The notes under the pieces are model-generated. The model made no database searches. It was not told the DNA's origin and was given only the letters and a program-made list of their open reading frames with translations. Below, piece after piece: positions 1 to 27,000 of a DNA stretch of 64,000 nucleotides. Source of the DNA: Amoebophrya sp. A120 (lineage: Eukaryota > Protista > Dinoflagellata). Position numbers and translations under genes: made by a program. The stretch lies in NCBI GenBank assembly GCA_905178155.1, contig CAJINV010000006.1, forward strand, positions 1,613,876-1,677,875, read 5' to 3'. Every line of letters begins with the position of its first letter. Positions within the stretch are counted from its first letter, which is position 1.

Positions 1-3000
1 GGTGGCCACCTGCTTTTCTATGGATTGCAAAAATGTCTGGGTCTGGAAGGGTGCCAGACTTGTCATGCAGATTTTCTATGGCCCATGAGGTCTGGTATGT
101 AGGACATAGCATGACAGATTCTGTGAGAGTTCTATCAGGCCTATCCTGCATGAGAAACTGCGTCTCGATTAGGTCAAAAGTGGACAGCTTTTGGTAATCA
201 TGCAACACAGATTTTTGCATGATTCAGCTTTAGCATGACATGTTGCTTTGTTCCAGACCCAGACATTTTTACATATTGAAACTTTCCGTCCCCTACCCGT
301 TGAGCATGGAAAAAGAAGCCACGAATCACGACTTCTGCCACAATATGCATTCGGAAATACGTCTGGGTCTGGAAGAGTCGGGGCTTGTCATGCACATTTT
401 GCATGGCTCGGGAAGTCTCTGATGCTGGTGCTAGCATCACAGATTTTTTGATGAGAGGTTCTTGATGCTAATTACGCATGACAAATGCCCTCTCCGCGTG
501 CCAAGAACTGGACTCCTTTTGCTGCAGCTCATGCAGCACAGATATTTTTAGGATCCGCAGACAGCATTACAAGTTCGACTCGTCCAGATCCAGACATATT
601 CGCAGTTGATACACAAATTTTTCAACAAACTTGTGGACGTGTGCGGCGGCCCGTGGACACTGAAAGACGGCTATGGAAGCGTCAGGATCGAAATCGACAA
701 AGTTGAAATAGTTTGTGATGCATAAAGTGCAACAAAGAAATTGCCTCTATTGCAGAGGACGCAAGGGATGCAGATTGTAAGCCTGTAAATGAGGGGTGCT
801 ACAGATTGAGCTGCCAAAGTAGCATGACAAAAGGCGTCCTCCTTACCCAAACAGCATTACAAACTGGATTTCAGTTCTACCCAAATTTGTCATTCGCCAC
901 TTGAAAACTAGGCGCCAACTGGTATCCGTTTCATGCATCACAAATTATTTCAACTTTCACGATTTCGGTCCTGACGCTTTCATAACGGCACGCACGAGTT
1001 CATGCGCGCTCGCCCGGGGTTTGCCGCGACGCCGGGAAAGAACATTTGTGCGGATCCTGACGCGCCGGTGCCGCCACCCACAACGAGCACGACAGCGGCG
1101 CCCCCGCCCCCTCTGTAGGGAATGCAAAAGCATCGTACAACTTCTAGTATAGATCGCATGACAAATTTTTTCCCCAGCTGCATGAGGGATCATGGAATTC
1201 GTCGTGCGCATTTGCAGCTTTGTGGAAGAGATTTGTATTGCATGACTGCAATTAGTACCAGTTGTGCGCTAGTGCTTTTGCATTGGATACCCTGCCTCCA
1301 CCGCCATCTTCGACGTCCTCAACCACCTGGCCGCCTGCACCGTACTATTCCACTATCAAATGTAAAAATGTCTGGGTCTGGAAGATTCTGAGACTTGTCA
1401 TGCATGTTTTGCATGACCCAGGATGTCTGTAATGCACGACCTAGCATCACAGATTTTTAGAGGGCTTCCTGATGGCTACTCCGCATGACAAACGCCCTTC
1501 CCGCGTAGCAAAAATTGCACTCCCTTTGCTGCTCATGCAATACAGATTTTTTTAGAGACCAAAGTTAGCATCACAAGTTCCAATCCTTCCAGACCCAGAC
1601 ATTTTTACATTTGATATCCACGATATCGCAACAAAAACGTGTTTTACTGTTATAGGATTTTGGAACTTCAAGTTTTGCATTTGCATCACAAAAGATAATT
1701 TGGTCTGCATAGACAACAAGGTGGAAAATTGAAATTTCCCATGCGAGTGTCGGTCTCTTACGGATGAAAAACTCGCCGAAGAAAAGTCCAATCTCTTGCT
1801 CTTGCATGTGTACTAGCAGCGCGACCGCTTGTTCTTTCCCTGTTGCGTCCTGCTCCTTTTTGGCATGATCACAAGTCATTTACAGTGAAGCAGTTCTTTC
1901 TTGTGATAAACGACCCGGCACATGCAGTATGCCGACCTATCAAATGTAAAAATGTCTGGGTCTGGAAGAATGCAACTTGTGACGCTGAATTTGGATTCCA
2001 AAAAAATCTGTATTGCATGAGCAGCAAAGGGAATGCAATTTTTGCTACGCGGAGAGGGAATTTGTCATGCGGAATAGGCATCGCGAAGCCCTGAAAAAAG
2101 CTGTGATGCTAGGGCATGCATCACAGACATCATGGCCAATGCAAAGCATGCATGACAAGTCTCAGAATCTTCCAGACCCAGACATTTTTACATTTGATAC
2201 GACCCTGATATCTACAACTTCATGACCCTGTCTATGGCGTTCTCAAACGTTCCATTTCGAACTGTTACATGGATGTGCAATGCAAGAACCACATACAAGA
2301 ATCAAAAGGTTGCTGCTTTCGCATCACAGATTTGCTGGTACAGATTTTCATGCTGTTTAGACCTTCGGAAATTTGTCATGCGCAGCCGCTTGGTCGTGTG
2401 GTTGCTTTTTATGGCGATTTTGCATGACAAATCATGTAACAGTTGAGAATGTAACATTTGAGAATGCCACACTGTCCCCAATCGGCCCGCCCCCGACCAC
2501 GACGCCGCCACCGGGTGAGCCGCCCGTCCCGCCGCCGCCGGCTTCCATATGAGAGTGCACAACCCCCGCTCCGTCTGCTCAGTTGAAAGGCGTGAGCAGC
2601 ATCACAGAGGACAGCAGAAATGTGGCACCTGCATGACAAATGCAAATCGAGGTCGGGGCTTTAGTACGGTTTGGAGTCGTCCTGGCGAAATTTGTGTTGC
2701 AAAGTAGTGCTCGAAGGCGGGATGTGGAGTTCTGTGGTTTTGCATGACAAATGAGGGAGGGGAGACGGATGATTGTGCACTTTCATATTCCACCTGCGAA
2801 TACTACATGTGGAACGACTGGTCTGACTGCACCCGGCACTGTCGGGATGCCTCTGGCGACACGGGCACGCGCACGCGGACGCTATCATATGTAAAAATGT
2901 CTGGGTCTGGAAACTTGTGATGCTGGGTGGCGTCTCATGATGAGGCCACAAATGCTGGCTCAGCATGACAAGTTTCTGAGCTTCTAGGTGTTGCCTATTC

Positions 3001-6000
3001 TGCATGTTGACAAACTGCGTTCCTGCATCACAGAAAAATGGAGCTCTTGGGTAACGCGCGTGACAGATTTAAGAGTCATGCCAGACAAGCATGACAAACA
3101 TGCATTCTTCCAGACCCAGAGGACATTTTTGCATTTGATAGACGCGAAGCATGGTCGAAAGCGCAGTATCAACCACCGCGTGCCACGGCAAGCCCAACCC
3201 CGACTCGCAACAAGCGGCCTGCTATCAAATGTAAAAATGTCTGGGTCTGGAAGATTCTGAGACTTGTCATGCATGTTTTGCCTGGGCCATGATGTCTGTG
3301 ATGCATGCCCTAGCATCACAGATGTTTTGAGGGCCTCGCGATGCCTATTCCGCATGACAAATGCCCTCTCCGCGTAGCAAAAATTGCACTCCCTTTGCTG
3401 CTCATGCAATACAGTTTTTTTTGGAATCCAAATCCAGCATCACAAGTTCCAACCCTTCCAGACCCAGACATTTTTACAATCCATACCTGCCCCCGCCGCG
3501 GCATGCCGAAGTGCTGCACGTGGGGGGATATCCTGTGCAAAAGTATCGTACTAACTCGTACTAATTGCGTTTATGCATTACAAACCTTTTTATCAAGGCA
3601 AGCCAAGTCTGCATGATATGCAAATTCAATTTGTAAAAATGCTTACGGAATTTGTAATGCAATTATTCATACTAGTTCTAGTACGATATTATAACTTTTG
3701 CAATGCATAGGGGAGTGGGAACCGTGGGGCGAGTGCAGCTGCGTGGGCACGACGGGACTGCACACAAGAGCCCGCCCGTTAACAAACGTCGCCCACCCCG
3801 TATCACAAGAAAAAAGTGTTACAGTTACACATTTGTTGGAGTTTCTGCATCACAAAGTTGCTCGACATGGCAAAGAAAACCTGTGATGCGCAGACTACAA
3901 GGGAAAACAGTAATGAAATGAGGCTGGTAAGCATTTCCTGCATGACATAGGTTGTCTGTCTTGCTTGTCGTCCATGAGAGTGTGTAACTGTAACACTTTT
4001 TTCTCAGGATGCCCCGCCGTTTGCGAGTTTTTCGTACAAGAGGAGGCATGTGAAGACGAGGATCAGGAGAGATTAAAATAGGAAATGCAAAAAATATTTA
4101 TCTGGGACACCTCCGTCGACTGGGACCAATATTAAACTGACATTTTGTTTCACGCACTGTGTGCATGTGCAAGATGAACAGAAAGTATGACAAAAAATTA
4201 TGCGGATGCCACTCCCGCTTCTCCACCATCGATTCTGTCTGCATGAGAACTACATCAAATGGCCTCGTCTTCTCGTGCTGGAGACGAGAATGATCGCGCG
4301 CCTACTTCTGCTGATTTTTATCCAGCACTGATTTTTTTTTTGTCATCCTACTTTCGAAAGATGACCCGAGGTGGACCCCGATAAATATCTTTCTATTTGC
4401 AATGCATAAGAAATGCGGAACGAGTACGACAACAAGCCCTCCCGCACCCCCGCCTCCCTCGCCAACAACGAGTCCGCCGGCAACCTCCTCAAGCTCAACA
4501 ACAAGTCCTTCCGCACCTCCCGCAAGCTCAACGGCAGCTCCGCCCGAACCCCCGCCACCCTCAACAGCAAGTACGCCGGCAACCTCCTCAAGCTCAACAA
4601 CAAGTCCTTCCGCACCTCCCGCAAGCTCAACGGCGCCTCCGCCCGAACCCCCGCCACCCTCAACAACAAGCCCCTCGTCCAGCAGTAGTACGACTACATC
4701 TTCAGCTTCACCCCCGACTATGCAAAGAGAATAAAAGTGTTACACTTACACATCGTGTTCGCAAAACATGCGAGACAGACGACCTCTGTCATGCTCAAAA
4801 TGCTTGCGAGTCTCGTTTTGTGTGTGTTTTGCCTTACGATCTCTGCATTACATACAAGTTTTTTCCGTCATGCGAGGCAAATTTGTGATGCTGAATTCAC
4901 TACAAATGTGTGACTGTATCAATCCACTTTTTTCCTTGGATACCGACGACCCCGCAGCCGCAACCTTCTACGCGGCCCCCACCACCGCCGCCAGAAGACT
5001 GCCAGCTTTCCGACTGGAGTGACTGGTATGAACTGCAAAAGTATCGTACTAGTATGAATCGCATGACAAATTAGCTTAGCACGACAAATGGAATTTGTCA
5101 TGCTGTTTTGCCTTGGGATGAAAATTTGTAATGCATGACTGCGATTACTACGAGTACGATACTTTTGCACAGGATAACTGGGGCTCGTGCTCCACGACGT
5201 GCAACCCGTATCAGATGCAAAAATGCGTGGGTCTGGAAGATTCTGAGACTTGTCATGCATGTTTTGCATGACCCAGGATGTCTGTAATGCGCGACCTAGC
5301 ATCACTGATTTTTACAGGGCTTCCTGATGCCTACTCTGCATGAGTAACGCCCTCCCCGCGTAGCACAAACTAGACTCCTCTTGCTGGTCATGCAATACAG
5401 ATTTTTTTGAAAACCAAAGTTAGCATCACAAGTTCCAACTCTTCCAGACCCAGACATTTTTGCATTTGATAACCCGAGAAGGGCATCAACATCTTCAAGC
5501 GAAGATAGCGGCAAGGGCGTGTGGTATCGGACCAGAACCATTTCAGAACCGGCCAAACACGGCGGGACGTGTATCCTGTGTAAAAACGTCCCCAGCACCT
5601 CAGAGTCAAGATGGGGAATCGGCTAGACAAATCCACAAGCTTTGGCTGTTTTGCATGACAAATTTGGACTCGTAGCGTAGTGCTGTTTGAGCTAGCTCAG
5701 CAGCATCACAGATCCAGTACATCATGCAGATTGGAGCATGACAAATGGCAAAACACGACTATAAAATGCTTCTCATGGGGCTCCGCATGAGAAACATTCT
5801 GAGCATGCAGCTTCGCATTACAACTCTGGGGTGGGGACGTTTTTAATTACGATAACGTGCAGAGAGCCGCTGCGGGAGAGCGAAGAGTGTACGGGTATTG
5901 CCCCATGCCGCCCAGGGAGTCCGCCCGGGGGGAAAAAAGACTGCATGTACGACTCGTGGAATGCGTGGTCGCCCTGTTCCCGCTCGTGCATGGACACAGA

Positions 6001-9000
6001 CGGCGACAAGGGCACGCAGACGCGGACACGGGTGGTGAAACAAGAAGCCGCGAACGGCGGGGAACTGTGCGCCGGCGAAGGGGAGAAGGAGACTCGGGAT
6101 TGTATCAGGTGTAAAAACGTCCCTGCCCCAGAGTTGTCACGCAAGTCTGCATGGTGAAAATAAATGTTTCATGTGGCGCTGGGTGCGGGTGTCCACTACA
6201 TGATGATGATGATGATGCGAAACCCCAACATGAGAAGCATTCTCTAGTAGTGTTTTGGGATTTGTGATGCTCGAAGCAGCATGATGCGCCAGATCTGTGC
6301 TGCTGCTGAAGATCTAGCTAAACAGGATCACACTGCGAGGCCAAACTTGTCTTGCGCAGCAACGAAAGCTGACTGATTTGTCTAGGAGCAGATTCCCCAT
6401 CTTGGCTTTGGGGTGGAGACGTTTATTTTGCACAGGATAAATTGTGCGGAAAACCTGCCGGACTGCGACGCGGACTGCGTGATGAGTCAGTGGCAGGCGT
6501 ACGTATCAAATGCAAAAATCCCTGGACGTCTGGGAGGATGGAACTTGTGATGCGTCCTGTGGGTCACACAAAAATCTGTGTTGCGTGATCACCCAAAGTT
6601 GTTCTTGCTTGTTTGACCAACCTGAGCGGGAGTTTCTCATGCAAAATAGGCATGATGGAGACTTCCACTTCGACTTCGCAGGATCTGTGATGCTAGGTCC
6701 TGCATTCCAGACCTCGCGAGGCATGGAAAATATGCATGACAAAAAATCTGCATTCTTCCAGACCCAAACATTTTTGCATTTGATAGTACGGCGACTGCAG
6801 CCAAACCTGCCGGCGAGTGGGGGCGCCGGCGGGAAGGCAGCAGTTTCGGCGGTCTGTGCTCACGCAGGCAAAGGGGCCAGGCGGGCAGTGTCCAGACGAA
6901 GACGACACGAGGAAAACCGAGGACTGCGCGAACGAACAAACCTGCCCGCCCATGCCGGATTGCGTCTGGACCGAGTGGCAAGCCGACTCGCGGGGGTGCA
7001 GTAAAAGCTGCGGCACCGGTATCGTGAGAAAAATGGTTACAGTGACAAACTCTCATGCAAGACAAGCAAGACAGGCAACCACTGTCATGCAGGAAGCGCG
7101 TCGTGCGAGCCTCATTCCATTCGTGTTTTATTCCCTTATAGTCTACTGCGCATTACAAGTTTTCTTCGCCATTACAAGAGCAGATTTGTGATGCTGAAAT
7201 TCCAACAAATGTGTAACTGTAACACTTTTTTCCACTTGGATAACCGGGGAACAGCGGTACAACCGGCGCATCATCATGGGGGATTGCGAGGGCGGATATC
7301 CTGAGTAAAAACGTCCCCACCTCCCCGGAGTTGTCATGCAAATGTGCAATGACAGGAACTTTTGTAATGCGCAGCTCCATGAATCCAATGGTGTTTTGGA
7401 AAAATTTGTGATGCTGTATTAACAAGATGTGAAAATGGCTTCGTCATGTAACCACTCCCTTGCCAACCAGCACTACACTGCAATGGGAAAGAACTTGTCA
7501 TGCACAGCTCCCAAAAGTTGGAGATTTGTGCTGCTAGATTCCCAAGAACTTGACTCTGGCGTCGTGGGGACGTTTTTGCTTGGGGTAGCGGACAAGAGCT
7601 TGCCAGCACCAAGGTGGAGAACTGCAAGGAGGATCCCTGCCCCTTGAGCTGCGAGGTGGAGCGGGATTGGCAGCCGATCGGAAATTGTTGGACTGGTAGC
7701 TCTTCCATTTGGGGCAACGAGGGCCCTTCGAATTACAATGCTGTTGACAAGTGTGAGGGCTGGGTTATGAACTATCGAAAGGTGATAGGAAGGTGCACAA
7801 CTCCCCCTCCACCACCTCATTTGTCACGCAAAATACCTAATGCTAATCCACCCTTATTTGCCTGTTGGCACTGTTTGATTGCATGACAAGTTCTGGTAGC
7901 CCAAATAGCACTACACTCCAGTGCAACTTTGTCACGCAAAGCCGGCACTCTTGCTGGTGCTTGTATTACCGTTCACGCTATACAACTGAGGGGGAGGGGG
8001 AGTTGTGCACTGTCATAGGTCACGCAAGCGGACCAGCACGCCAATTTGTACAGCGATGACGTGGTGCGGACCTGCGAAGAACTCGCGGAATCGGAACACG
8101 CCCGACTCTATGCAGTGCAAAAGTATCGTACTCGTCGTACTAATTGCGAACATGCATGACAAGTCTTCTCCTAAGGTAAAGCAGCATTATATATAAGGCC
8201 GAGGGAATTTGTATTTGTGATGCTATTTATACTAGGACGCTACTTTTGCAGGTCATAGACTCAAGCAGCCGCAGCAGCAGCGAGATGACCCGTGCCCCTA
8301 CGACGAGACAGAAAGGTGCATCCACTACATGCAGCTGCCCCTTCGGATTCAAAAAGTCGTAAAGTGCCGGGACCCGGCGTTGTGTCCGAAAAAAGACTGC
8401 GTGATGAACGCCTGGGGCCCCTGGGGCGATTGCTCCCACACTTGCGGGGAAGGGGAGAAGAAACGGACCAGGACGGTTAAATCGGAAGCAAAAAACGGAG
8501 GAACCCCCTGCGACGAAATGTCTTATCAAATGCAAAAATGTCTGGGTCTGGGAGAATGGATGTTTGGCATGCTTGTCTGGCATGACTCTTAAATCTGTCA
8601 TGCACGTTACCCAAGAGCCCCATTTTTCTGTGATGCAGAAACGCAGTTTGTCATGCAGAATAGGCAACACCTAGAAGCTGAGAAACTTGTCATGCTGAGC
8701 CAGCACTTGCGGCCTCATCATGAGACGCCACCCAGCATCACAAGTTTCCAGACCCAGACATTTTTACATTTGACAGGTCTAAAGAGCAAACCACGTCGTG
8801 CGAAAACGAACACCACTGTCCAGTTCACTGTGAATGTATGAACTGCAAAAGTATCGTACTCGTAGTATTGCATGCAATACAAATTAGCTCAGCATGACAA
8901 ATGGAATTTCTCATGCTGATTTAGCTTGACAAAGAAATTTGTTTTGCATGACTGCAATTACTACGAGTATGATGCTTTTGCACAGGATAGAATGGAACGA

Positions 9001-12000
9001 GTGGCAAAATTACGGTCAGTGCGACTGCCCACACGGAAAGCCGTACAAAAAAACCCGGACACGCACGAAAAAGATCACGGAGCAGTACGGTGGGCGTTGC
9101 CCTGGGAAGGAGTCTGAAGAAACAACATGTAGTGTCCGCGAGTGTCCCTCGAGAAACTGCGTCTGGCACGAGTGGGGCGAGTGGGGTGACTGCACGCAAG
9201 GCTCTAAGACCTGCCACGCGGACGACAGAAAAAAAACGCGGACACGGAGAAAGAAGCACGAGGCCCAGGGAAACGGGCGTTGCGAGACTGAAGACGGGAA
9301 GGAGACCGCTTCTTGCCCCACCACGGACCCCTGTCCGGTGGACTGCAGGTTTGAAGATGAAGAATGGCAGTGGACGGACTGCTCGGCCACCTGCGGGACC
9401 ACCGGGGTTCGAAAGAGGTACAAGCGGATTAGAACGCACGCGGCCCACGGCGGGACACCGTGTTCCGACTCCGGGAAAGTGGAGGGGAACAGAGTCTATG
9501 CTGCCGATCACAGTGTGGACATCCGGCACTACGAGTGCAACCGACACGAGTGTCCGCGCGACTGCCGGTTGTCGCAGTGGGTCGACGACGGCAGATGCAG
9601 CAAGACCTGTGGCGGGGGTGTGCAGAAGAAGACACGGGAAGTTGTGGAAACTTCGCAGGGGACAGGGGATACTTGCAGCGAGGTTGCGGAAAAGGAAAAC
9701 GAAGGGTCGTATCAAAGCGACAGAAATACACACTATGTGTCTGTGTACACGAAGCACGTTTCGTGCAACACGCAGGACTGTCCCACCGTCGACTGCGAGA
9801 TGGACGAGTGGCAGGGCGACAGAGACGACTGCTCCGGCTCCTGTGGCGGGGGGAACTACTTTACGCAAACGCGAGGCGTGAAATCCCACCCGAAAAACGG
9901 CGGGGCGTCGTGCTCCGCCCACCGGAGCCGGCAGGTGGAGTGCAACAAACAGCCATGTCCCGTGGACTGTGAGCTGAAGGTATCACAAGAAAAAAGTGTT
10001 TAGAGTTCTTACACGTTTGTTGTAGCTTCAACAAGACAAATTTTCTCTGCATGAGACGCGGGAAAACTTGCAGTGCGCAGACCATAAGCGAAATAAACAC
10101 GTATGAAATGAAGCTCGGAACAATCATTTCTGGCATGACCGAGATCGTCTGTCATGCTGGGCTTGCTACACAATGTGTAACTGTTGCAACTCTTTTTTCT
10201 CGTCATAGCGGGACTGGACGGACTGGGGCCAATGTTCAAAATATGAGAGTGCACAACTACTCCCTCTCCCCCTCATTTGCATAGCATGAGCAGCAATAGA
10301 AATACCAACACACTTGGAGCCTGTGCATGACAAGTTCTTCACGGGCCGAAAATTGTAGGGCAGCTGCGTCCAAAATTTGTCATGCAAGCAGTGCCACTAG
10401 GACCACAAGGCACCAAATCAATTGGGGACTTTGCATCATGATCACAAATGAGCGGGACGAGGGGGAGTACTAGTAGTTGTGCACTGTCATACAAAAACGT
10501 GCACGCCCCACGGGCACGCCCCGGGCACGCGGACGCGACACCGAGGGATTCGCACGGACCCCGCGCACGGCGGAAAGCTGTGTGATACACGGAAGGAGAC
10601 GGAAGAATGCAACACGCACGACTGCCCGGAATGCGGGTCCAGCTGCACGTATTACTCCTGGACCAGCTGGAGCCCGCCCTGCCCTTCGTGCAAGCAGTCC
10701 GCATCGGAGTCCCACCAACAGCACCGAACTCGGCAAGTGAGAACCAAACCGTGTAATAACAATGGAGATGATATGGAAGCGTCAGGTTTGAAATCGACAA
10801 AGTTGAAATAACTTGTAATGTATAAAATCGATACCAGTTGGAAGCCCAATTTCCAAGCGGTGCATGACAAATTTCGGCGCCGCCCAAATCCAGTTTGTCT
10901 TGCTGTTTAGGGACAGAAGGCGCGTTTTGTCATGCTACATTAGCAGCTCTACCGCAGACCCCAAACAGGCTGACAGTCGGCCTCACTTGCCGCCCCTGCA
11001 AGAGAGGCACTTCATGCCTTGCAATTTATGCATGAGAAATTATTTCAACTTTGACGATTTCAATCCTGACGCTTCCATAGATGAGTCCTGTATCAACAAG
11101 CACGAACATAGGGATTGTTCCATCAGCGTGTGTATCAACTGTAAAAATGTCTGGGTCTGGAAGAATGCAACTTGTGATGCTATTTTTGGAATCTAAAAAA
11201 ATCTGTATTGCATGAGCAACAAGAGGCGTCCAGTTTTTGCTCCGCGGAGAGGGGATTTCTCATGCGGGATAGGCATCAAGAAGCCCGCAAAAAATTTGTG
11301 ATGCTGGTGTATACATCACAGAGGACATCAGGAGTCATGCAAAATGTGCATGACAAACCTGGCAATCTTCCAGACCCAGCCACTTTTACATTTGATAGTG
11401 TGCCGTAGGGATTGCGAGCTCAAACCCTGGAGCGGTTGGGGCCCCTGCAGTGCGGACTGCAGAGCGGAAGGAAAATCGGCCCCTATGAAATGCAAATGTC
11501 CCTGGATCATGACGAACTTGTGATGCGCATTCCACAACACAGACAAATCTCTCATGCACAGGAAGCAAAAGATGTCCATTTTCTGTCACCAAAGTCGGGG
11601 ATTTGTCATGTGGAATAAGCAAGAATGCGGAAGCTACTTCTCGAAATCTGTGATGCTAGGGCTTCCATGACATACAGCATTCGGTGTCATGCAAGAACAG
11701 CATGGCAAAAATCTGCACGACTCTACTTCCAGACCCAGACATATTTGCATTCGATAGCCCCAGAACAGACCCGCACTAAAGGGATCAAGCACCATTCGTT
11801 GGGCAGCGGGAAACACTGCCCGAGCGAAAGCAGCGAGGAACGGAAGGAGACCCGGCCTTGCAACGACCACGCTTGTCCTGTCGACTGTGTGCTGTCTTCG
11901 TGGGTAAAGGACGACGTCTGCAGTAAGACGTGCGGCATGGGGTCCCAGAAATACAAACGAAGCGTGCAGACGCACACGCGCGGCGACGGATTGACTTGCG

Positions 12001-15000
12001 CAGACCGATACGACCACGACGGGCGACTGCACAAACAGGAATCCTGCCATGAGCGAAATTGCCCGGGCGACTGCGAGCTCAGCGAGTGGCAATGGGTGGG
12101 GGAATGCAAGCGAAAGTCCAATCAAGACCCACCGCACAAAGTCCCAGGCAGCACAAATCGCTATTGCAAGAAGGAGGGAGAAGAATACTTCAAAGAAAAA
12201 AGGCGACACGTCACGAGGGAGCCTTCGGCCGGCGGCGTATGAATTGCAAAACTATCGTACTAGTATAAATCGCATGACAAATCTCCTCAGCATGAAAAAT
12301 AAAATTTGTAATGCGGATTTCACTTGAGAAAGAAATTTGTAATGCATAAACGCGATTAGTACGAGTACGATACTTTTGCACGGGATACGGCGCGGCCTGT
12401 CCCGATTCCGAGCCCTGTGACTCCATATGCAAGATGAAAAAAACTGTGTAAGTGTAACTCTGTGATGCAGAAAATGCAAAACTGTTACACTTGTCATGCT
12501 TGATCTGCGTCATAGGCTACTTTCATACGTGTTTTCACTGATACTAGCTGCGCATGACAGGTTTTCCCGGTAATGCAGCAGAGCGAATTTGTCATGCTGC
12601 TCTTCCTACAAAGTCACACTTGCGCAGTTTTTTTCCTGGATACTCCACGAACGAGAACTATTGTGACGACAAAAAACTGATTCGAGATTACTCTGTTTGT
12701 GATTACATAGACCATTGCCCGGTCAACTGCTATGGCGTTCTCTACTGTTTTTACATTCTCAACTGTTACACGAATTTGCAATGCAAGTAGGGCAAAAGTG
12801 AAAGGACGAAGACTGCGCCTTTTGCATTACAGATTTGGGCCGGATTATAGTGCTATTTAGTCCTTCGCAAGAAATCTGTCATGCGGAGCAGCTTGATCGT
12901 GAGGGATGATGATGGTGCTTCTGCATGGCAAATTCATGTAACAGTTGAGAGTGTAACGCTTGAGAACCCCATATCTGCGAGGCGGAGGAGTGGACTGATT
13001 GGTCCCCAGCTTGTCCGTATCAAGTGCAAAAATGTGTGGGTCTGGAAGAATTCATGTTTGTCATGCTTGTCTGGCATGACTCTTAAATCTGTCATGCACG
13101 TTACCCAAGAGCTCCGTTTTTCTGTGATGCAGAAGCGCAGTTTGTCATGCAGAATAGGCAACACCTAGGAGCTCAGAAACTTGTCATGCTGAGCCAGCAT
13201 TTGTAGCCTCATCATGAGACGCCACCCAGCATCACAAGTTTCCAGACCCAGACATTTTTACATTTGATTGTCCGGAGCAGTGTCCGAACCCCTCGAGAGA
13301 AATATCCTGTGTAAAAGTCTCGCACTTGTAGTAATTGCAGTCATGCGTTACAAATTTTTCACTCAAGGTAAATCCGCATTACAAATTTCATTTATCATTT
13401 CTCATTCTGAGGGAGCAACTTGTCATGCTTTTTTTATACGAGTGCGATACCTTATTTGCAATTTGATAAGAAAATCCGGACACCGACCAGCTGCCAAAGC
13501 AAACCAGGACGCGCCGGCTCAAGCCCGCGAGGCACGGCGGCGAGTGTATGGGAGTGTCAGGATTGAAATCGACAAAGTTGAAATAATTTGCAATGCGTAA
13601 AACGGATACCAGTTGGAAGCCCAGTTTCTAAGTGGCGCATGACAAATTTGGAAAGAGCCGAAATCCAGTTTTTCATGCTGTTTGGCTAAGGAAGACGCCT
13701 TTTGTGATGCTACTTTAGCAGCTGTATTTCTACCCCTCAACAGGCTTACAATCTGCCTCCCTTGCCTACTCTGCAAGACAGGCACTCTGTGTGTTGCGTT
13801 TTATGCATGAGAAATTATTTCAACTTTGTCGATTTCAAACGTGACACTTCCATAGAGTGCGCACAGGAAGTAAAAGAGACGCGGGACTGCGAGATTTGCG
13901 TGGTAGACTGCGACATGAACGAGTGGGGCTCGTTATCAAATGCAAAAATGTCTGGGTCTGTAAACTTGTAATGCTAAAAGTGAATGATAGACGCGCCGCA
14001 ATACGCAGCTATGCATGACAAATTTTGTGGCTGCCATGTCTTACGTATTCCGCATGGCAAACTGCCTTTTCGCATGACAGTTAAGAGGGCTCTTTCGTGC
14101 CTATGCAACACAGATTCCCGAGTCATGCCAGACAAGCATGACAAACTTGCATTCTTCCAGACCCAGACATTTTTACATTTCATACTCGTGGTCGGACACT
14201 TGTGCCCAGTGCTACGAAGCGGACGGTGAAAAGCCGCAGCGGAAAAGAACGCGGACAGTGAAGCAGCACAACAACAGCCACGGTAGGCAGTGCCCGGATC
14301 AGGAAGAGACCCAGCCCTGCCCGGAACCTCGAAAATGCAAAATCGACTGCGTGATGGGTCCGTGGGGCGATTGGGAAGATTGCGAGGCCAACTGCGTGAC
14401 CGAAAATGGGGAATTTCCCCAACGTATCAACTGTAAAAATGTCTGGGTCTGGAAGATTTCCAGGTTTGGCATGCGTATTTCGCATGGGCTATGATGCCTG
14501 TAATGCATGACCTAGCATGACAGATTTTTTGCGAGTATCTTGATGCCTATCCCGCATGACAAATGCCCTCTCCGCGGAGCAGAAACTGGACGCCTCTTGC
14601 TGCTCATGCAATACAGATTTTTTTAGATTCCAAAAATAGCATCACAAGTTGCATTCTTCCAGACCCAGACATTTTTGCAATCCATACAACGGAAGCGCAC
14701 CCGGGAAATCGAAACCCCACAAGCGCACGGTGGGCAACACTGTCCGCGTGACAGCAAGACCAACATTATTACAATGAAATATAGTGCCCCCTCGTGGTCC
14801 CCATATTAAAACGGAAATCTGTGGTGCAGATTTGTGGCCACAAATCAGCTTCGTGATGCTAGAAGGCAAAAGAAGATGTAGCGGACTGTAGTGTTGGCTA
14901 GCGTGGGAAAGCCTAGCATCTCCAGCATGACAGGGGGCAACTGGAAGTGGAAAACAGCATGACAACATATGCCTGCAATTCAGGCCGCAGCTGCTGTGTG

Positions 15001-18000
15001 TGTTGGCCTTATAGCAATACAAATCGACTTGCGTACTCGAATACAGCATCACAAATTTTTTCCATTTCGATATGGCGGGGAGGGGGATTTTTTCCTTTTG
15101 ATCCGCGCGGTTCTCACAGAGGAAACGAAGGATTGCCAGTCAGACCTGCCCAACTGCGATATCGACTGCAAAATGAACGAGTGGCATATGGCGTTCTCAA
15201 ACCGGTTACCTTCTCAACTGTTACATGAATTTGTCATGCAGAACTACCATCATCATCGACGCAATCAAGCTGCTTCGAATGACAAATTTTCGAATGGCTA
15301 AATAGCACCTGAATCTGTGCGAGTTTTGTAATGCTAAATGTGCAGCCTCCCCCCTTTGACTTTTGCTATTCTTGCATCACAAATTCATGTGGTTTCGTTT
15401 GGTTTAGCATCACAAATTCATGTAACAGCTGAGAATGTAACACTTGAGAACGCCATATGGCAGGATGAAGTTGAAGACGGCGACAAATGCCGTTCCCAAG
15501 ACAATCCAAAGAAGGTCGCTACCTGCAAAGAACTATTTCACGAAAAAACTGTCTCATTGTGATGATTTTGCAATACCTGCATCACAAGTTTGTTACACAT
15601 GTGACGCGGAAAACTTGCCATGCGCGCATTTCCCATAGGGGAAAGCACGGTTAAAGATTCAATGTTCTATGCAGGTGTAGCAAGACAAACACTTTGGCGC
15701 TTCGTTCTGTGCATCACAAGTTCACAGTGAAGCAGTTTTTTCCTGCGATAGAAACCGGACAAAAAGTACTACAAAGTGCAGAAGCGCACCGTGAATCGGG
15801 AACCGAGTGGGAGTGGCAAGCAGTGTCCTCCAGTGGATAGTGTGTGCAATTTGAACAATCGGGCCGCAGCAATAACCCGCATATCAAGTGCAAATATGTC
15901 TGGGTCTGGAAGTATACAAACTTGTCATGCAGGATTGCCATGCCCCAGCCCCTAGAGGTCTGCAATGCAGGATCTAGCATGACAGATTCTACAAGGTCTC
16001 CGTCATACCTGTTCTGCATGAGAAACTCCCTCTCATGGTGGTCAGAAAAGGGCAACTTTTGGTGATCTTCACGCAAGACAGATTTTTGTGTGATCCACAG
16101 GATGCATCACAGGTTCCATCTTTCCAGACCCAGACACATTTGCATTTGATAGCGCAGCAAGTGCAGCAACTACCGGATTTACCACGACTACGCCTACTGC
16201 GACACACATTTGTATGGATGTGTCAGGATCGAAATCGACAAAATCGAAAAACTTGTCATGTATAAAATGTTTAACACTGGAGGGCTGTGTTGGGGAGCAG
16301 GCAAATGAGACCGATTGTCAGAGTGTTTAGGGGTATGCAATGTGCTGCCGGACCCGGAGTAGCATGATAGGAGCAGTCCTCTTTGCCCAAACAGCATGAC
16401 AGATTGGATCTGGGTCCTCCCGAAATTTGTCATGTGCCACTTACAAACTGAAGCTCCGCCTGGTATCGTATCGATTTTATGCATTACAAATTTTTTGATT
16501 TGTGCAATTTCGATTCTGACACTTCCATGATTTACCACAATGCAAGCGAGACTGCAAGTTAGAAGACGAGTGGCAGCTTGGGAAGTGTAACTGCGTGACA
16601 CAGGATATCGTTTGTAAAAACGTCCCCACCTCCTCCCCAGAGTTGTATATGCAAATCTGCATGCTGAAAATGTTTCTCATGCGGAGACCCACCATTTTGA
16701 GAAGCAGTCTCTATTGCTGTTTTGCGATTTGTGATACTCGCATTCGCATGGTATGCGTATGCCAGATCTGTGATTTTGCTTCACTAGCTAAACACGATTT
16801 TTACATTGCAAGCCCAGATTTGTCATGCGCAACAACGACCAAAGCTGGTTGATTTATGTAGCAGATTGTACATCTTGACTCTGGGGTGGGGACGACGCTT
16901 TTGCTCAGCATAGAGGAAAGAGAATGGTGGAAGGAAATTCTCCAACATGCCAAGTACGACTATGACATTGCACAACTCCCCCCCTCCCTCCTCCTCAATC
17001 ATTTGTCATGCAAAATACCCAATCCACCCTTCGTGTCTTGGCACTGTTTGCATGACAAGTTCTTGTAGCCCAAATAGCACTACAATCCAGTGGAAATTTG
17101 TCATGCAAAACCGGCACTCTTGCTGATGATGATGATTGCCGTTCATGCTATACGAATGAGGGGGAACAAGGGGAGTTGTGCCCTGTCATAACGGCGGAAA
17201 AGAGTGCAGCACGTATGGGGATAAAGTTCGGAAAAAAGATTCGGAAAATGAGTGGCATCACGACAGGGTCTACAAAACGAACACTACTTGTTCGCAGGCG
17301 GCGCTTGACCAAGATTGCCCGAAGCAGGACTGCGAGGTTTCTGAGTGGAGAGAAGTGAAAACGTGCAAGGACGCCGCGGACTGCATCGAGGAGCACGAGC
17401 CTTCACACAGCAGAAAAAAGGTGATGAAGAAGTTCGAGCGAACGATCCTAAAACAGCCGAGGAACAACGGAACGGAATGCCCGGAGCTGGAAAAATGGGA
17501 AGAGTGCGCGGTGCAGCAGCAGGGCCAGGGGACGGGCGATCTGCCGCTCTATCAAAGTGAAAAAAGCCCCCACCCCATATCGAAAACGGAAGATGCGCGA
17601 ATTTGTGATGCTGTATTTGAGTACACAAATCAACTTGTATTGCTAGAAGGCCAGGAGACGAAGCTGCGGCCTAAATTGCAGGTAATCTGTCATGCTGTTT
17701 CCCACTTCCAGTTGCCTCCTGTCATCCTAAAACTGCAAGGCTTTCCCACGCTAGACAGCACTACAGTCCGCATCTTTTGCCTTCTAGCATCACAAAGCTG
17801 ATTTGTGACCACAAATCTGCATCACAGATTTCCGTTTTGATATGGGGAGGGGGCATTTTTCACTGTAATACGCTCTGCGCCGTCGACTGTCAGGTAGAGG
17901 AGACTTGGCGCGAAACGGACTGCTCGACAACTTGCGGCCCGGGAATATGGAACTGTCAGAATCGAAATTGACAAAGTCGAAAAATTTGTGATGCACAAAA

Positions 18001-21000
18001 TCGATGCCAGTTAGAGCCTCAGTTTCCAAGTGGCGCATGAGAAATTTCGGGAGCACCCACATCCAGTCTCTCATGCTGTTTGGGCAAAGAAGACTGCTCC
18101 TGTCATGCTACTCGGGCAGCACATTGCTTAGCCCTAAACAGGCTTGAAATCGGTCTCATTTGCCTGTTCCCCAATACAGGCCTTGCGTGCCCTACATTTT
18201 ATGCATTACAAATTTTTCGATTTTGACGATTTCGATCCTGACACTCCCATAGGGAACAAAGGACAAGTACAAGAAAATCCTGCAGCAGCCGCGGCACGAC
18301 GGGGCGAAAAATTGCACTGAAATAGAGCCCAGGGGGGAGCTGAGGCCTCAGATAAATCGGGAAAGGCTGTATCACAAGGACGGCCCGTTTCACTGTGATA
18401 ACCCAGATGACTGCGGGCGGGACTGCAAAGTTGAGGAGGGAGAGTGGAAGCAGACTCCGTGCTCCAAATCCTGCGATACAGGGCGCTTTCGTAAGTACAA
18501 GCGCATTCTGAAACGCGAATCCGGCGTGGACGCAAAGCCCTGCAGCGACTCCGGGAAGGTAATTACTGACCGGGTGTACAAGTTAAGAGCGAAGGCCAGA
18601 AACGACGACGACGACGTCGTGGAAGAATTCTCGTGCAACGAACGCGTGTGTGCGGTTGACTGTGTTTTCACACCCTGGAAGGACGACGACCGGGTGTGGG
18701 GTGGAGGGGCCGGTAAAACCACCACCCCTATCAAGAGGAAAAATCCCCCCTAAGCCATATCGAAACGAAGTTTCTGATGCTGGATTTCCGTGCACAAATC
18801 AGATTTGTCTTGCAGTAGAGGACTGCAGGCATACGTCAAGCCTCTCGACTCGAGAGGTTTTGACGTAGGCGCCTAGCATGACACACGTGCATGCTCTAAG
18901 CCCAACAGCATCTATCACAAACCGCCTGCGAAATGCAGGGGGCTCTCTGGACTTGCCTTCTTGCAAGACAGACAAGATTTGAGGTCACAAACGTGCGTCG
19001 CGAATTTTCAGAAGGATGCGTTTTCAATATGGGGAGGGGGGATTTTTCTTTACGATAACCCCTTTCCAATCCTTCGAGACGCGGCCAATCGATCTCGCCG
19101 AGTTTACGCAACAGTACCCCGATATCAACTGTAAAAATGTCTGGGTCTGGAAGAATACAACTTGTCATGCTAAATCTGAAGCATGCAAAAATCTGTGTTG
19201 CATGATTATCAAAAGTCGTCCAGTTTTGACCAGGTCGGAAGGGAGTTTCTCATGCAGAATAGGCATGAGAGAGATCGCACAGAATGTGTCATGCTAGGTC
19301 CTGCATTCGAGACCTCATGGGTGATGGAAAAGCTGCATGACAAATCGCGCATTCTTCCAGACGCAGACACTTTTGCATTTGATACCCGATCAAAGTAGTT
19401 TTAACTTTGTCGGCAGCGAGGTTTTTGGGAAATTAGACTTCGACAAAAACGAGAAACTTTCGGAAGAGGAATACCAGCGGTTCCTCGACAATCCCGGCTG
19501 CAGCGAGTTTTGCGGGCCCGATGGGAAGAAGAAGCAGATTCGCAGCGTGAAGACGCAGCCGAAGGGCAATGGGGACACGTGTGCGGAAGTAGCGCAGAAG
19601 GACCCAGAGGACGGGGAGGATTTTGAGAACTTAGAGGGTGACGACCTGTTGCGGAGAGAGGCATCCTGCAATACCTCCGACACTGTAGTTCTATGCATTG
19701 CAAAAGTATCGTACTCGTATAAATGCATTACAAATTTCCTCAGCCTGAGAAATAAAATTTGTAATGCGGATTTAGCTTAAAAACGAGACTTGTAATGCAT
19801 GTTTGCAATTACTACGATGCTTTTGCACAGGATAAGATCTCTGTCCCACCGATTGCACGGTCAGCGAGTGGACGATATGGCGTAGTTCTCAAACATTACA
19901 TTCTCGAACAATCACATGGACTTGTGATGCAAAATTACGATAAGCAGGAGCAGCTGCCCCACACGAGCAAGCTACTTCGCATGACAAATTACCGAGGGGC
20001 TATTAAACAGCATCGTAAAAATTATCCGTGCGAAGTTTGTGATGCGAGAGCTGCAAGGTTGCCCCTTTCCCTGTTGCTGTTCTTGCATTTTTTGTACGCA
20101 TTCACGCAAGAACAGCCGAGAATGTAGTGTGTGAGAACGCCATAGACCAACGACGGATGCACGAAACAGTGCGATGGGATTCACGCGAGGATGGAAAATG
20201 CGTTCCGGAAGAAAAAACGGAGAATAACGCACGTAACGGGAAAACCGCTTCATGGTGGGAAGCCGTGCAGCGCTTTTGAATTGACCAAAATCAGTAGCGA
20301 AGTCTGCAACGAGAAATGCGCGGTAGACTGCGTCCTGCACCAGTGGGAGGATTGGGGCGACTGCTCCCAGTCCTGCATCCCAAGAGACGAAGCAAATCCG
20401 GCGACTGGCACGCAAACCCGAAGTCGCAAGGTGAAAGTCGCAATGCAAAACGACGGACAACCGTGTGGCGATCTGACGGAAACCAGGGCTTGCAACCAGG
20501 TGGAATGTCCGGAACCGCGTCCCACGTGCGAACATGCGCGCGAATGGCGCACGGAACACGAGTGTCCGCCTTGCCTCCAGCATAAAGATGACGACGCGTA
20601 TGAGATACAAGTCAAAGACGTAATCACGAAACCTGCGGAGAGGAGTCCGGCAGCCTCTACGACTGAATCGCCGTCGACGACGCCCGCCGTTTCTTCGGAG
20701 AAACAAGGAGCGAATGAAAGTCCCAACCTACCAGCTCCTATCAAATGTAAAAATCTCTGGGTCTGGGACATCATAGCAACTTGTCATGCTAAATCTGAAT
20801 CATGCAAAAATCTGTGTTGCGTGATTACCAAAAGCTGTCCACTTTTGACCTAATCGAGAGGCAGTTTCCCATGCAGGATAGGCATGACGGAACTCTCACA
20901 GAATCTGTCATGCTATGGCCTTCATACCAGACCTCAAGGGTCATGGACAACCTGCGTGACAAGTCTGGCAACATTCCAGACCCAGACATATTTGCATTTG

Positions 21001-24000
21001 ATAGCTCCCCCGGACGGTGAACAAACCCCAACCCCGAAGCCACCGGCAAGTAGTACCACTACCAGCAGTACTACACCGACGATTTCCAGAACTTTTTACA
21101 GGGAGGGGCAAACCGTATGGGGAGTGGAAGACAACCGCCCCGACGCGGTGAAAAAACTTATGGTTCGAGTACTTATACCCCCGGCCGACCCGGACCACCT
21201 GTTCTTGAAGAGCGGGCACGTAGAATGTTGGAATGCGTGCGATGGAAGCAGTCTGAACAAAAAACGGGGGTTCTGCAGCAAGTGCCAAGTGCTCCACACA
21301 AAAGAGTTGGGTGATGGATTAGTTCAACGGAGCCCGCTGCCGGACGACTACACCGGAGCGTGCTGCCGGTACAACAAAAACACCCAGCGAGGCACGCCAC
21401 ACTCCTGGGACCACCACGACCCCCGCGAGTGCCGCATCCTTGGCGCGCTGAAGGGCAAGGGGCCGCAAAATTTCCTCTCGAAATTCTATTGGGACTGGGT
21501 GGACAATACCAACCGGGAGATCAACAAAGCGGGTTACATATGGATTGCAAATATCCCTGGACGTCTGGATGATTCTAAACTTGTGATGCTGTCTCTGGAT
21601 TCTAAAAAAATCTGTATTGCATGACCAGCAAGAGGACTCCAGCTTGTGCTACGCGGACGAGAGGGCATGTCTCATGCGGTAGAAGCATCACAAAGTCCTC
21701 TAAAAATCTGGGATGCTAGGGCATGCATCACAGACATCATGGGCCATTCAAAATAAGCATGACAAACTTGGCAATCTTCCAGACCCAGACATATTTGCAC
21801 TCGATATTACACGGACTACGACAATACAGAGGGGTACCACAGTTGCGTCGCGGTTCCCAAGTGGGTGCGAGACGGCACCTGCCTGAGCCCGGAAGGCGAC
21901 TGCAGTGAGGAAGGTTTGTGCGACAAGTGCAAAACGGACATTCTGACTGCGGAAAATAAACAAGGTGACCAACAGTACGCAAACCGCAAAGGCGCGTGCT
22001 GCAAAAAAGGGAAAAATTACGCCAGTGGCCATGCGTGCAACAACGTGAAAAAGAGTCCCGCTGGTGATGGTCAAGCAAAGTACCGGTTGGCGGACCTGAA
22101 GTTCAAAGACGATATCAGTGCTGAGGACGAGTTCTATGTTGCTGAGTGTGTGCTGGTCGACGACACTAGCACCGCGCCGGCGGGAACAGGTGATACTCCC
22201 ACAGAGGCCGCCGGCTTCCTCGAGGTCGAGCTTGCCGCGACAAAAAGAGAGTGCATATCGTAAGTGAAAATCCCCCCTCCCCATATCGAAAAGAAAATTT
22301 GTGATGCTGATTTGTGAGCACAAAAAAGCGTTGTCTTGCGTACAATGCAAACGGCACCCATGTGGTGCATTGTACAGCGAATCTGTCATGCGTTTTCGCC
22401 TATGTCAGACTTGTTTCTCATGCTCAGCTGCTGCTAGCCGGATGAATGCCCAGCAAATGGGCTCAGCATATAAAAATGCCGACATCAAGCTCCTGCTGCA
22501 TTGCAGCAGGAGCTTGACCTTGATGTCGGCATTTTTATATGCTGAGCCCATTTGCTGGGCATTCATCCGGCTAGCAACACAAATCCAGCAACACTGCGTC
22601 TGAGCAATACAAAGCTCATCTGTCGTGTACACAAATCCAGCAACACAAATTGTCTTTTGAATATGGGGCTGTTGGGGCTTTTTTCACTTTGATCGTGCCT
22701 CCCGCAGCAAAGAAAAATCCCGTGCGAGAATTTGGAGCTGTGTCCGAAGAACTGCACGCTCAAGCCGTGGACCGAAATATCATGAGAAAAAAGTGTATAC
22801 AATTCTGTCTTACACATTTGTAATGGACTTTCTCCATCACGAATTTTCTTCTGTGTGTGGCAGACAAACCTTGTAATGCAAAGATCATAAGGAAAAATCA
22901 AAATACGTGGGAAAGGAGGGGCGCAAGCATTTCCTGCATGACAAAGGTTGTCTGTCTTGCGGCACCTGCAACACAAACTGTAACACTTTTTTCTTGCGAT
23001 ACGAATGGGCAGATAGCCACTGCTCCGAGGATTGCGGGGGCGGTGAGCAGACCCGAACGAGGGCCATCCTGGAACCGGCAAAGTACCACGGAACGTGCTA
23101 TGAGGCCGACAGCAAGGAGCGGAAGGAAACGCGAGAGTGCAATACCGAAGACTGTCAGAACTGTGAACTGGGAGAGTGGGAAAAAAGCGGCGACTGCACC
23201 AAAACCTGTGTATCCAAGTGAAAAAGAAAAAAGCCCTCTCCACATGTTGAAAAGGAAATTTCTGTTGCTGGATTTGTGTACACAAGTCAGCTCTGTCTTG
23301 CAGTGAGGTACTACTGCAGGCAAAGCCCAGCCTGCGTAGGGGTGTTTTGGTTTAGGTGCTTAGCATAAAAGAGGCCTGCCGTGTAGGGGCAACAGCATTA
23401 CAAACCGCCTCCCTAAAGCGGCGCACTCTTTGGATTTGCCGTCTTGCAAGAGAGACAGGATTTGTGGCCACAAAGCAGCATCACAAATTTTTAGATGCGT
23501 GCCCTTTCAGTATGGGGAGGGGGGATTTTTCCTCACAATACTGCGGCGGCGGTATTCAGGAGTGGAGAAGGGATCAAGTGTATCGCAAGAAAAAAATGTT
23601 GCACTGTGAACTTGTGACGCAGAAAACGAAGCACCAAAGTGTTTGTCTTGCAGCTACACCTGCAAGACATTGGATTTTCAAGCGTGTTTTCCCTTTGAAA
23701 GCGCGCATGGCAAATTTGCCGTGTCATGTATAACAAACTTGTGATGCAGATCTTGCAAAATCAGAAAATCACCACAGTGAAACAGTTTTTTCCTGTGATA
23801 AAGTGAAAAAGCCGGGCCCGGGCGGACTACCCTGTTCCGAGGAGTATGACAACGACCACCTATGGATCTGTCAGGATTGAAATCGTCAAAGTTGAAATGA
23901 TTTGTCATGCATATAAATGCAAGGCATGAAGTGCCTGTCTTGACGGGATGGCAGAGCCGATCCACAACGAACGAACGGGATGGCAAGTGAGGCAGATTGT

Positions 24001-27000
24001 GAGCCTATTTAGGGTTTGGGGTAGAGCTGCTAAAGGAGCACGACAAAAGCAGTCGTCTGTGCCCAAACAGCATGACAAATTGGATTTTTCCGGTGCTCCG
24101 GAAATTTGTCATGTGCCGCTTGGAAATTAGTCTTCCAACTCGTATCCATTTTATGCATGGCAAATCATTTCAACTTTGTCGATTTCAAACCTGACGCTTC
24201 CATACCACCCGGACGCGAGGCACTACATCAACAATCCTTCACGACAATCCCGTCGGGGACCAGGACACCGTGATCCCCAGACCGACAATCCGCGCCGGAA
24301 GTACACGGAGTGCAGGACCAGCAAATGCCCAGTCGATTGCGAACTTGAGTCGCACTGGAGCACTGTATCCCCTTCGATAGCAGGTCCTGATGCAGCTTCT
24401 TCGGGGTTCTTGCAGAAGTTTGGCGACATCCTATCCTGAGTAAAAACGTACCCACACCAGAGTCAAGATGGGGAATCGGCTAGACAAATCCACAAGTTTT
24501 GTCTGTTTTGCATGACAAATTTGGATTCGTAGTATAGTGCTGCTTGCGCTAGCTCAGCAGCATCACATATCTAGCATACAATGCTGATTGGAGCATGACA
24601 AGTTGCAAAACACGACTAGAAAATGCTTCTCATGGAGCTCCGCATGAGAAACATTTTCAGCATGCAGATTTGCATTACAACTCTGGTGTGGGTACGTTTT
24701 TACTCAGGATACATCCAAGAACGAGGAATCAATGACAAGAACGATCCATGGAAAAATTATCAAAAGTAAAAATGTCTGGGTCTGGAAACTTGTGATGCTG
24801 GGTGGAGTCTCATGATGAGGCTACAGATGCTGGCTCAGCATGACAAGTTTCTGAGCTCCTAGGTGTTGCCTACTCTGCATGACAAACTGCGCTTCTGCAT
24901 CACAGAAAAACGGAGCTCTTGGGTAACGTGCATGACAGATTTAAGAGTCATGCCAGACAAGCATGACAAACATGAATTCTTCCAGACCCAGACATTTTTA
25001 CAGTTGATAAAAATAGCACTTCCGCGATTTATTTTCCGACAGCAGGTGTTGGCGCAGGAGCTTCTTCGACGTTTTTGCAGATGAAGAACTATGTCGACAT
25101 CCAGGAAGGAATCAACCGCGGGCTTTATAATGACGGGGAATGGAACACTGCGGACCCCAACAAGTGGTTCGGGCCCTTCCCTGCGGCGCTGCAGAAAGTG
25201 ATGCGTATGGCGTTCTCAACTGTTACATTCTCAACTGTTACATGAATTTGTGATGCATGAATGGCAAAAGTGGAAGGGGAGAGCTTGAGCGTCTTGCATG
25301 ACAGACTTGGCCCAGATTTAGACGCTGTTTAGCCATTCGAGAATTTGTCATGCGAAGCAGCTTGATCGTCTGGTGGCTCATCGTCATACTGCATGACAAA
25401 TCATGTAACAGTTCAGGATGTATCAATTGAGAGTCCCATAATGCGCGAGGAGTTTGGAAATAACAACGAAAAGTTTGATCTCTATACGGGCGAGACGGAG
25501 CTGTTTTTGCAGGACAATGAGCAGGGCCGCGAAAGCCGCTTTGGGCAATTTCCATACCATGACACCTGGCTGAATCCAAGGGAGCTGAGTGTGTGCGAAC
25601 AAAAGCTTTTTATGCTTGCGTTCAATGCTTACGCCAATGCTCACTTGGATGCCACTCAACCACTGAAAGCGAGTAAAATGGCACAGTATCAAAGTGCGCT
25701 TCAAGGGATCAATACAAAAGAACTGGCCGAGAAGTTCCGCGGCTATATATGGTCTGAAGGCTATTGCAAAAATATGCCTGCCGAATGCAAATATCGGTTG
25801 GGGTGGCGAGAACAGTGCGCGTCCCTCGAACCCGTTCCTGCTCCTGCTCCTGGTCCCACTGCTCCCACCGAAAATGATGTCGACCCCGCCTCGCTTGCGT
25901 CCTGTATTTTGCGAGGAAGTAAGCCGGAGCAGGGTCCGCACGTGTTCGAAATAAACAATGTCAATTACTACTGCCGTTTGAAAGACGAGCGGTACTTCAA
26001 GAAGAAAATTCTGAAAATCAAAACCCACCCCTCCACGGACACGACGCCAAAGGGGAAAGCTTGTCCCGCGAAGCTGTGTGACGAAGAGAACATACTATGG
26101 ATTGTAAAAATGTCTGGGTCTGGAAGGACGCGAACTTGTCATGCTAAGGCTGGATAGTACATGAATTTGTGTTGCATGATTGCCAAAAGGTGTCCACTTT
26201 TGAACAAGTTTAGAGGCAGTTTGTCATGCAGGATATTAGACATGATAGAGACTTCGAAGAATCTGTCATGCTAGGTCCTGCCTTACAGACCTCATGGGGC
26301 ATGGAAAATATGCATGACAAGTTTGCAATCTTCAGACCCAGACATTTTTACATTTGATACATACAAGATTGCGACAAAACCGAGGTGAACGAGTTTCACG
26401 ATTACGCTATCCTGAGTAAAAACGTACCCACACCAGAATTGTAATGCAGATTTGCAAAGACAGGAAGACTTGTAATGCGCATCCGCATGAGAGCCATTTC
26501 CAATCGTGTTTTGGAATTTGTGATGTTGTGAACAGGATGAGCAGATGAATCTGTGACGCGGCTGCACTGGCTAACCTGCACTACATTGCAGAGTGCAACT
26601 GGTCATGCGTGACTCACAAAGCCCCTAGGTTTGTGTTGCAAAATCCCCATCCTGACTCTGGTGTGGGCACGTTTTTACTCAGGATATACGCCGCCTGCGC
26701 GGCCCTCGAACGCTGCTCGCCCAAATGCGCGGCCGAGTTTGGAGAGTATGAGCTAATTCCCACCCCTGATTATGATTGCTTCCGCGGGGGCGGGGATTCA
26801 GATTCATCCACCCGGCCGGTATCCTGCGAAGTAGAGGAAGACGTAGTCGTTATCCTGAGCAAAAACGTCCCCACCCCAGAGTCAAGATGGGGGTATCGCA
26901 ACAGAAGTCGAAAAGTCCTGGGAGTCAAGCATGACAAGTTTCTCTCTGTATTGTCGTGCAGTTTAGCAAGTACAGCCGCAACACAAATCTATCTACTCAT

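Follow-up and report, generated by a model that had tools for sequence, protein, structure and literature searches.

How the tens of thousands of hairpin introns of Amoebophrya are removed when they have neither GT-AG ends nor a detectable U1 snRNA to serve them is an open question in the available text of Farhat et al. (PMC7789003). In that text, the introners of Amoebophrya sp. A120 are families of non-GT-AG introns of about 240 nt, with a motif of TAT, seven variable nucleotides and at least three A, inverted repeats of 8-20 nt, direct repeats of 3-5 nt over their borders and splice sites that are variable relative to the hairpin. In the window analysed here (64,000 nt of A120 DNA, contig CAJINV010000006.1, positions 1,613,876 to 1,677,875), two such elements lie 7 nt apart within one gene, a natural experiment that makes the question of how they are spliced testable. 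If each hairpin is recognised by itself and cut at a fixed register, a 2-nt exon and intermediates lacking a single element are predicted; if joins are guided by the repeats or slide along them, one excised piece is predicted. The answer that we find somewhat probable is that the two introners, which belong to different families, are removed as separate introns, one after the other, and leave an exon made of CG. Such an exon, if real, would be a 2-nt exon born from transposon insertion, a rare by-product and not a new system.

Inspection of the junction between the two introners gives ATA TCCACGA TAT at 1614-1626, with a spacer of 7 nt. The features of the site are as follows.

1294..1352, forward strand: upstream exon, 59 nt at the deduced register, coding for a Pro/Ser/Thr-rich linker
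1349..1353, forward strand: left target duplication of element 1, TCCAC
1353..1620, forward strand: predicted intron 1, ends CT..CA, at the deduced register
1354..1616, no strand assigned: element 1, a TAT..ATA hairpin of 263 nt with terminal inverted repeats (TIR) matching at 20/20; young, with 0 private variants in a family of 13 copies
1617..1623, forward strand: spacer TCCACGA, 7 nt, the overlapping inner repeats
1621..1622, forward strand: predicted 2-nt exon CG, deduced from the sequence alone
1623..1912, forward strand: predicted intron 2, ends AT..CG, at the deduced register
1624..1908, no strand assigned: element 2, a TAT..ATA hairpin of 285 nt from another family than element 1, TIR matching at 14/20; older
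1909..1913, forward strand: right target duplication of element 2, AACGA
1913..1936, forward strand: downstream exon of 24 nt; no ordinary exon of the gene is shorter
at least 282..58700, forward strand: host gene with TSP1 repeats, 6,639 stop-free codons after removal of 136 elements

In the initial annotation, TCCAC (1617-1621), the right repeat of element 1, and CACGA (1619-1623), the left repeat of element 2, overlap; this overlap is indeed present at 1617-1623, the two inner repeats sharing 3 nt. It was also correct in giving CACGA as the left repeat of element 2, but it overlooked that the right copy, AACGA at 1909-1913, carries one mismatch, a synonymous change (TCC/TCA). The overlapping repeats match two insertions, offset by 2 nt, in one 7-nt target, and the presence of two elements 7 nt apart with overlapping duplications is a genuine feature of the locus.

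The host gene provides the setting in which cuts can be located. An automated scan of the window detected 135 TAT..ATA elements flanked by 5-bp duplications; 11 elements were then added by hand, and one nested element was swapped for its host. This gave 136 elements over the span 282-58700, of which 11/136 were placed by hand once stops had appeared, including two of the three elements that yield the informative stops described below. Excision of each of the 136 elements together with 5 nt leaves a single open frame of 6,639 codons, and excision of the element with any other length in the range of 0 to 8 nt leaves 391-5,057 codons. Longer introns that carry inserts (563-2,272 nt) occur elsewhere in the gene and are likewise compatible with the frame. 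The predicted protein has TSP1 repeats, whose homologues show a broad taxonomic spread, and weak EF-hand and PAN matches that fall below the Pfam cut-offs. Its top identity is 48% among 240 fetched proteins, and its residues 1-150 have no match among the same 240. The annotated product of the gene was absent among 120 of 562 matches listed (579-2000 aa only) and from the best 150 of 1,589 matches, and exon 987-1115 used as a query for it gave no match. A location of the pair in a 5' UTR, with translation starting at ATG 1922, is ruled out, as the frame is open upstream across three more elements to 282.

The position of the cuts can be read from duplications whose two copies differ. The 5-bp repeats are perfect in 96/136 elements and mismatched in the other 40/136 (51 mismatches in total); they match at 4 or 5 of 5 bases in 129/136 elements and at 1-3 of 5 in seven. 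Stops arise at elements 4079, 34167 and 53280 when the right-hand base is taken at duplication position 1, 2 or 4, so positions 1-4 come from the left copy; retention of the right repeat copy, which gives three stops, is ruled out. At 22778, the second W of a TSP1 WxxW motif needs the right-hand base at position 5 and allows no other choice; this position is W in 82% and R in 0.13% of 3,907 motifs from 240 homologues. The remaining 11 mismatches at position 5 are synonymous or non-decisive, and the assignment of that position is based on this one clear residue together with the published table of A120 splice sites. In that table (Table S4 of PMC7789003, in the part available), T is the second base in all nine of the commonest RNA-supported non-canonical sites, as the register deduced here predicts. 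We infer that introns throughout the gene begin 1 nt ahead of TAT and end 4 nt past ATA, regardless of the bases at the cuts. For the pair, this register would give introns 1353-1620 and 1623-1912 and the exon CG. The available text of Farhat et al. leaves the position of the border open, and the present register narrows it. Matching repeats do not seem to be needed for removal, judging from three old elements (14767, 38083 and 50886) whose repeats match at 1-2 of 5 bases and for which the rule of element plus 5 nt still holds.

The two ends of the elements also differ in how far they tolerate change. At TIR bases 1-2, variants number 0/272 at 5' ends vs 11/272 at 3' ends (p=0.0009), and at base 3 the ratio is reversed, with variation in 8/136 5' ends vs 2/136 3' ends (p=0.10). 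TA is invariant at the 5' end (136/136), and 134/136 elements have an A at -7 relative to the 3' cut. This asymmetry points to strand-specific recognition of the ends, with the invariant TA as the putative +2/+3 of the donor and the A at -7 as a candidate branch point.

At the pair itself, YYSTTRHMQY is read within one open frame once both elements are removed, each with 5 nt, and removal of element 1 or element 2 alone brings in a stop. A single intron at the standard register (1353-1912) shifts the frame and meets a stop 9 codons on; the claim of the initial annotation that a net 2 nt is required for the frame is therefore upheld at this register. Shifted joins behave otherwise. Single introns 1352-1909, 1353-1910 and 1354-1911 produce a cDNA identical to that of the two-intron route, and 1352-1912 or 1353-1913, each a 1-nt slip, remain in frame with the loss of one Thr from the linker. 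As CG at 1621-1622 is the same as CG at 1911-1912, the origin of these two bases in an mRNA is indistinguishable by sequence, and since the first three single introns give the same cDNA, it is not cDNA sequence that would separate a micro-exon from a composite intron. No RNA data set was listed as matching 1150-3800. Four runs were searched for RNA from the site, two consisting of contigs guessed to be RNA (X5 and X6) and two of raw RNA (X15 and X16, 61 and 9 reads), none of which covers the gene; their matches are element copies from other loci, all X15 and X16 reads being partial, with zero depth over 1670-1883 and no joint.

Folding of 1340-1925 has each element closing its own ends, with probabilities of 0.87-1.0, while cross-pairs between outer or inner ends have probabilities of 0.00. 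The end duplexes amount to -37.6 kcal/mol for element 1 and -17.7 for element 2, vs -3.6 for the outer ends of the pair, the median over all elements being -26.4. TATC/GATA is common to the two outer ends, which match at 13/20. The predicted fold thus favours two separate units. The initial annotation had proposed that the elements are recognised independently and then removed in sequence; independent recognition fits this fold, and the sequential order follows from steric reasoning, as the inner cuts lie 2 nt apart and would not be engageable together. Under this mechanism, two hairpin transposons in one coding exon would be spliced separately, as 1353-1620 and 1623-1912, one after the other, with element 1 leaving first, during transcription, if one may guess.

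The lengths of neighbouring exons bear on whether so short an exon is tolerated. Among the 135 internal exons, the series begins with the 2-nt CG and continues with 24, 27, 28 and longer. With uniform insertion, 17.6 exons of 3-23 nt would be expected vs 0 observed, and an empty class arose in 0/20,000 simulations; exons of 24-50 nt are in excess (40 vs 19.3 expected). Exons of at most 2 nt number one, with 2.3 of 135 expected on the same basis, and the CG exon is by itself unsurprising. Elements occupy 38.5 of the 58.4 kb, and a nested introner was found once, at 50913-51121 within 50886-51405, 27 nt inside the 5' end of its host. The empty zone may result from target choice, and linker- and GC-biased insertion of introners has been reported (in the part of PMC9860276 available). 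It may also result from selection against short exons, and if it does, introns are not in general spliced freely in sequence and the 2-nt exon is a real anomaly that calls for another explanation.

A left end lying 2-32 nt beyond a common right end was sought in one scan of metagenome_contigs, which returned five loci, all on contigs with the prefix JACKZZ01, with gaps of 28 (twice, apparently one site), 25, 24 and 5. Only gaps of 24, 25 and 28 correspond to clear pairs, the gap of 5 at L003 being left out. In L002, L004 and L005, the rule of element plus 5 nt opens the frame over 3, 3 and 4 elements, respectively. At L003 (457-516), exactly 5 nt separate an element end from 26 nt that look like the first part of element 50886; the locus lacks a corresponding 3' end, and the frame is open throughout. 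This may be a chance match, an element remnant or a same-site insertion.

The two elements appear to differ in age. Element 1 has 0 private variants, vs 1-20 in the other 12 copies of its 13-member family (12 relatives at 78% or more), and it is 94.7% identical to its nearest copy in the window, closer copies possibly existing elsewhere in the genome. Element 2 is about 77% identical, over aligned columns, to its two nearest relatives in the window. Its inner end matches that of its nearest neighbour at 21/25, which is at the 25th percentile and no outlier, ruling out unusual decay of this end. Element 2 was probably the earlier arrival and element 1 a young, later one, which would have used a target ending in the first three bases of the left repeat of element 2. 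Because element 1 is young and maybe not yet filtered by selection, the intact frame says little on whether the pair works.

This youth is the starting point of another explanation, in which element 1 inserted very recently, disrupts or impairs splicing (by frameshifted skipping or by retention), has not yet been purged, and yields the 2-nt exon rarely or never. The perfect TIR, the perfect target duplication and the 0 private variants of element 1 all agree with it, as do the lack of any other exon below 24 nt among the 135 and the restriction of clear pairs in the metagenome_contigs scan to gaps of 24, 25 and 28 when 2-32 nt were scanned. We nonetheless consider it unlikely, since 6,639 codons are stop-free, the nearest window copy of element 1 is only 94.7% identical, and the gap in exon lengths may itself reflect target choice, given the 24-50-nt excess and the one nested introner.

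A composite intron, in which both elements and the spacer leave together at a shifted cut (1353-1910, 1352-1912 or 1353-1913), is in our view rather unlikely. All three joins are in frame, the outer ends share TATC/GATA with their 13/20 match, the frame-compatible introns with inserts provide longer precedents in the same gene, and the available text of Farhat et al. (PMC7789003) describes splice sites as variable. However, the outer duplex is just -3.6 kcal/mol with a pair probability of 0.00, and none of the three joins preserves TA at +2/+3 together with the A at -7. In addition, one removal length fits 136/136 elements, including the seven with repeats matching at 1-3 of 5, which fits a fixed ruler better than repeat-guided cutting. 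Very improbable, finally, is an assembly artefact or the removal of elements from DNA instead of RNA: the duplications overlap exactly as two insertions predict, the asymmetry of the 5' and 3' ends is strand-specific, and introns of this kind in A120 are supported by RNA-seq in print (PMC7789003, in the part available). Separate removal of the two introners as individual introns thus stays the reading that we prefer.

Both elements conform in structure to the published description of A120 introners: they have inverted repeats (20/20 and 14/20) and a hairpin fold, 5' ends that fit the motif of TAT, 7 nt and AAA, 5-bp direct repeats (5/5 for element 1 and 4/5 for element 2) and relatives in families. 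A micro-exon, an exon-length floor and overlapping duplications are not mentioned in the available text of Farhat et al. (PMC7789003), and the present analysis adds a pair separated by 7 nt. The short paragraph on Amoebophrya in a review of transposon-derived introns (PMC11282704) is, in the part available, without such a micro-exon, and our literature search turned up neither a 2-nt exon made by a transposon nor an exon-length floor reported for Amoebophrya.

Exons of this size have precedents in plants. A 1-nt exon is accurately spliced in Arabidopsis (PMC4674806), and for the 1-nt micro-exons of plant APC11 and VPS55, successive removal of the flanking introns has been proposed in the available accounts (PMC4674806, PMC8831610). 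Like the CG exon, these are below the size of exon definition and needed for the frame. They are, according to the same accounts, old, conserved, flanked by GT-AG introns and demonstrated by cDNA (for APC11 also by mutation), whereas the CG exon would be newly made by a transposon, has non-canonical predicted flanking ends (CT..CA and AT..CG) and is itself predicted from sequence. Tandem transposon dimers in Drosophila, as far as the available text describes them, arise when the target duplication created by one element receives another (McGurk and Barbash, 10.1101/158386), and the present pair would be alike in this respect. Those dimers consist of the same element with exactly one duplication between copies; here, two families meet at a 7-nt junction with a 2-nt offset inside a coding exon, and each element would be an intron. 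Stepwise removal of one intervening stretch is also a feature of stwintrons and recursive splicing. A stwintron is defined, in the accounts available, by an internal intron that interrupts a splice element of an external intron; element 1 ends 6 nt before the predicted donor of element 2 at 1623, and 2 nt would remain in the mRNA, which places the pair outside this definition.

A wider proposal, which we regard as quite unlikely, is that A120-type introners are cut by the fixed ruler of a U1-less spliceosome, with a donor N|UA, a branch A in the inverted repeat at -7 and no AG. Exons of 3-23 nt would then be forbidden as neighbouring hairpins block each other, and near-abutting elements would escape by a direct, recursive hand-over from the 3' cut of one intron to the donor of the next. 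The cut register, the end asymmetry and the empty 3-23-nt class are all testable on existing A120 RNA-seq.

Some minor observations concern the elements at large. The introner at 54106-56377 holds a repeat-rich element of 2 kb (54321-56317) with long inverted repeats of its own and repetitive ORFs, and an intervening stretch of ~1 kb at about 58770-59750 contains inverted repeats and, near 59180, a few TTTAGGG units like those of telomeres. Elements 19876, 48675, 60200 and 63559 carry 3-base insertions (TAG or CAA) within their terminal inverted repeats, possibly the footprints of another transposon. Motifs like GCATGACAAA and its reverse complement are present in many copies inside most elements of all families, and are possibly subterminal repeats bound by a transposase.
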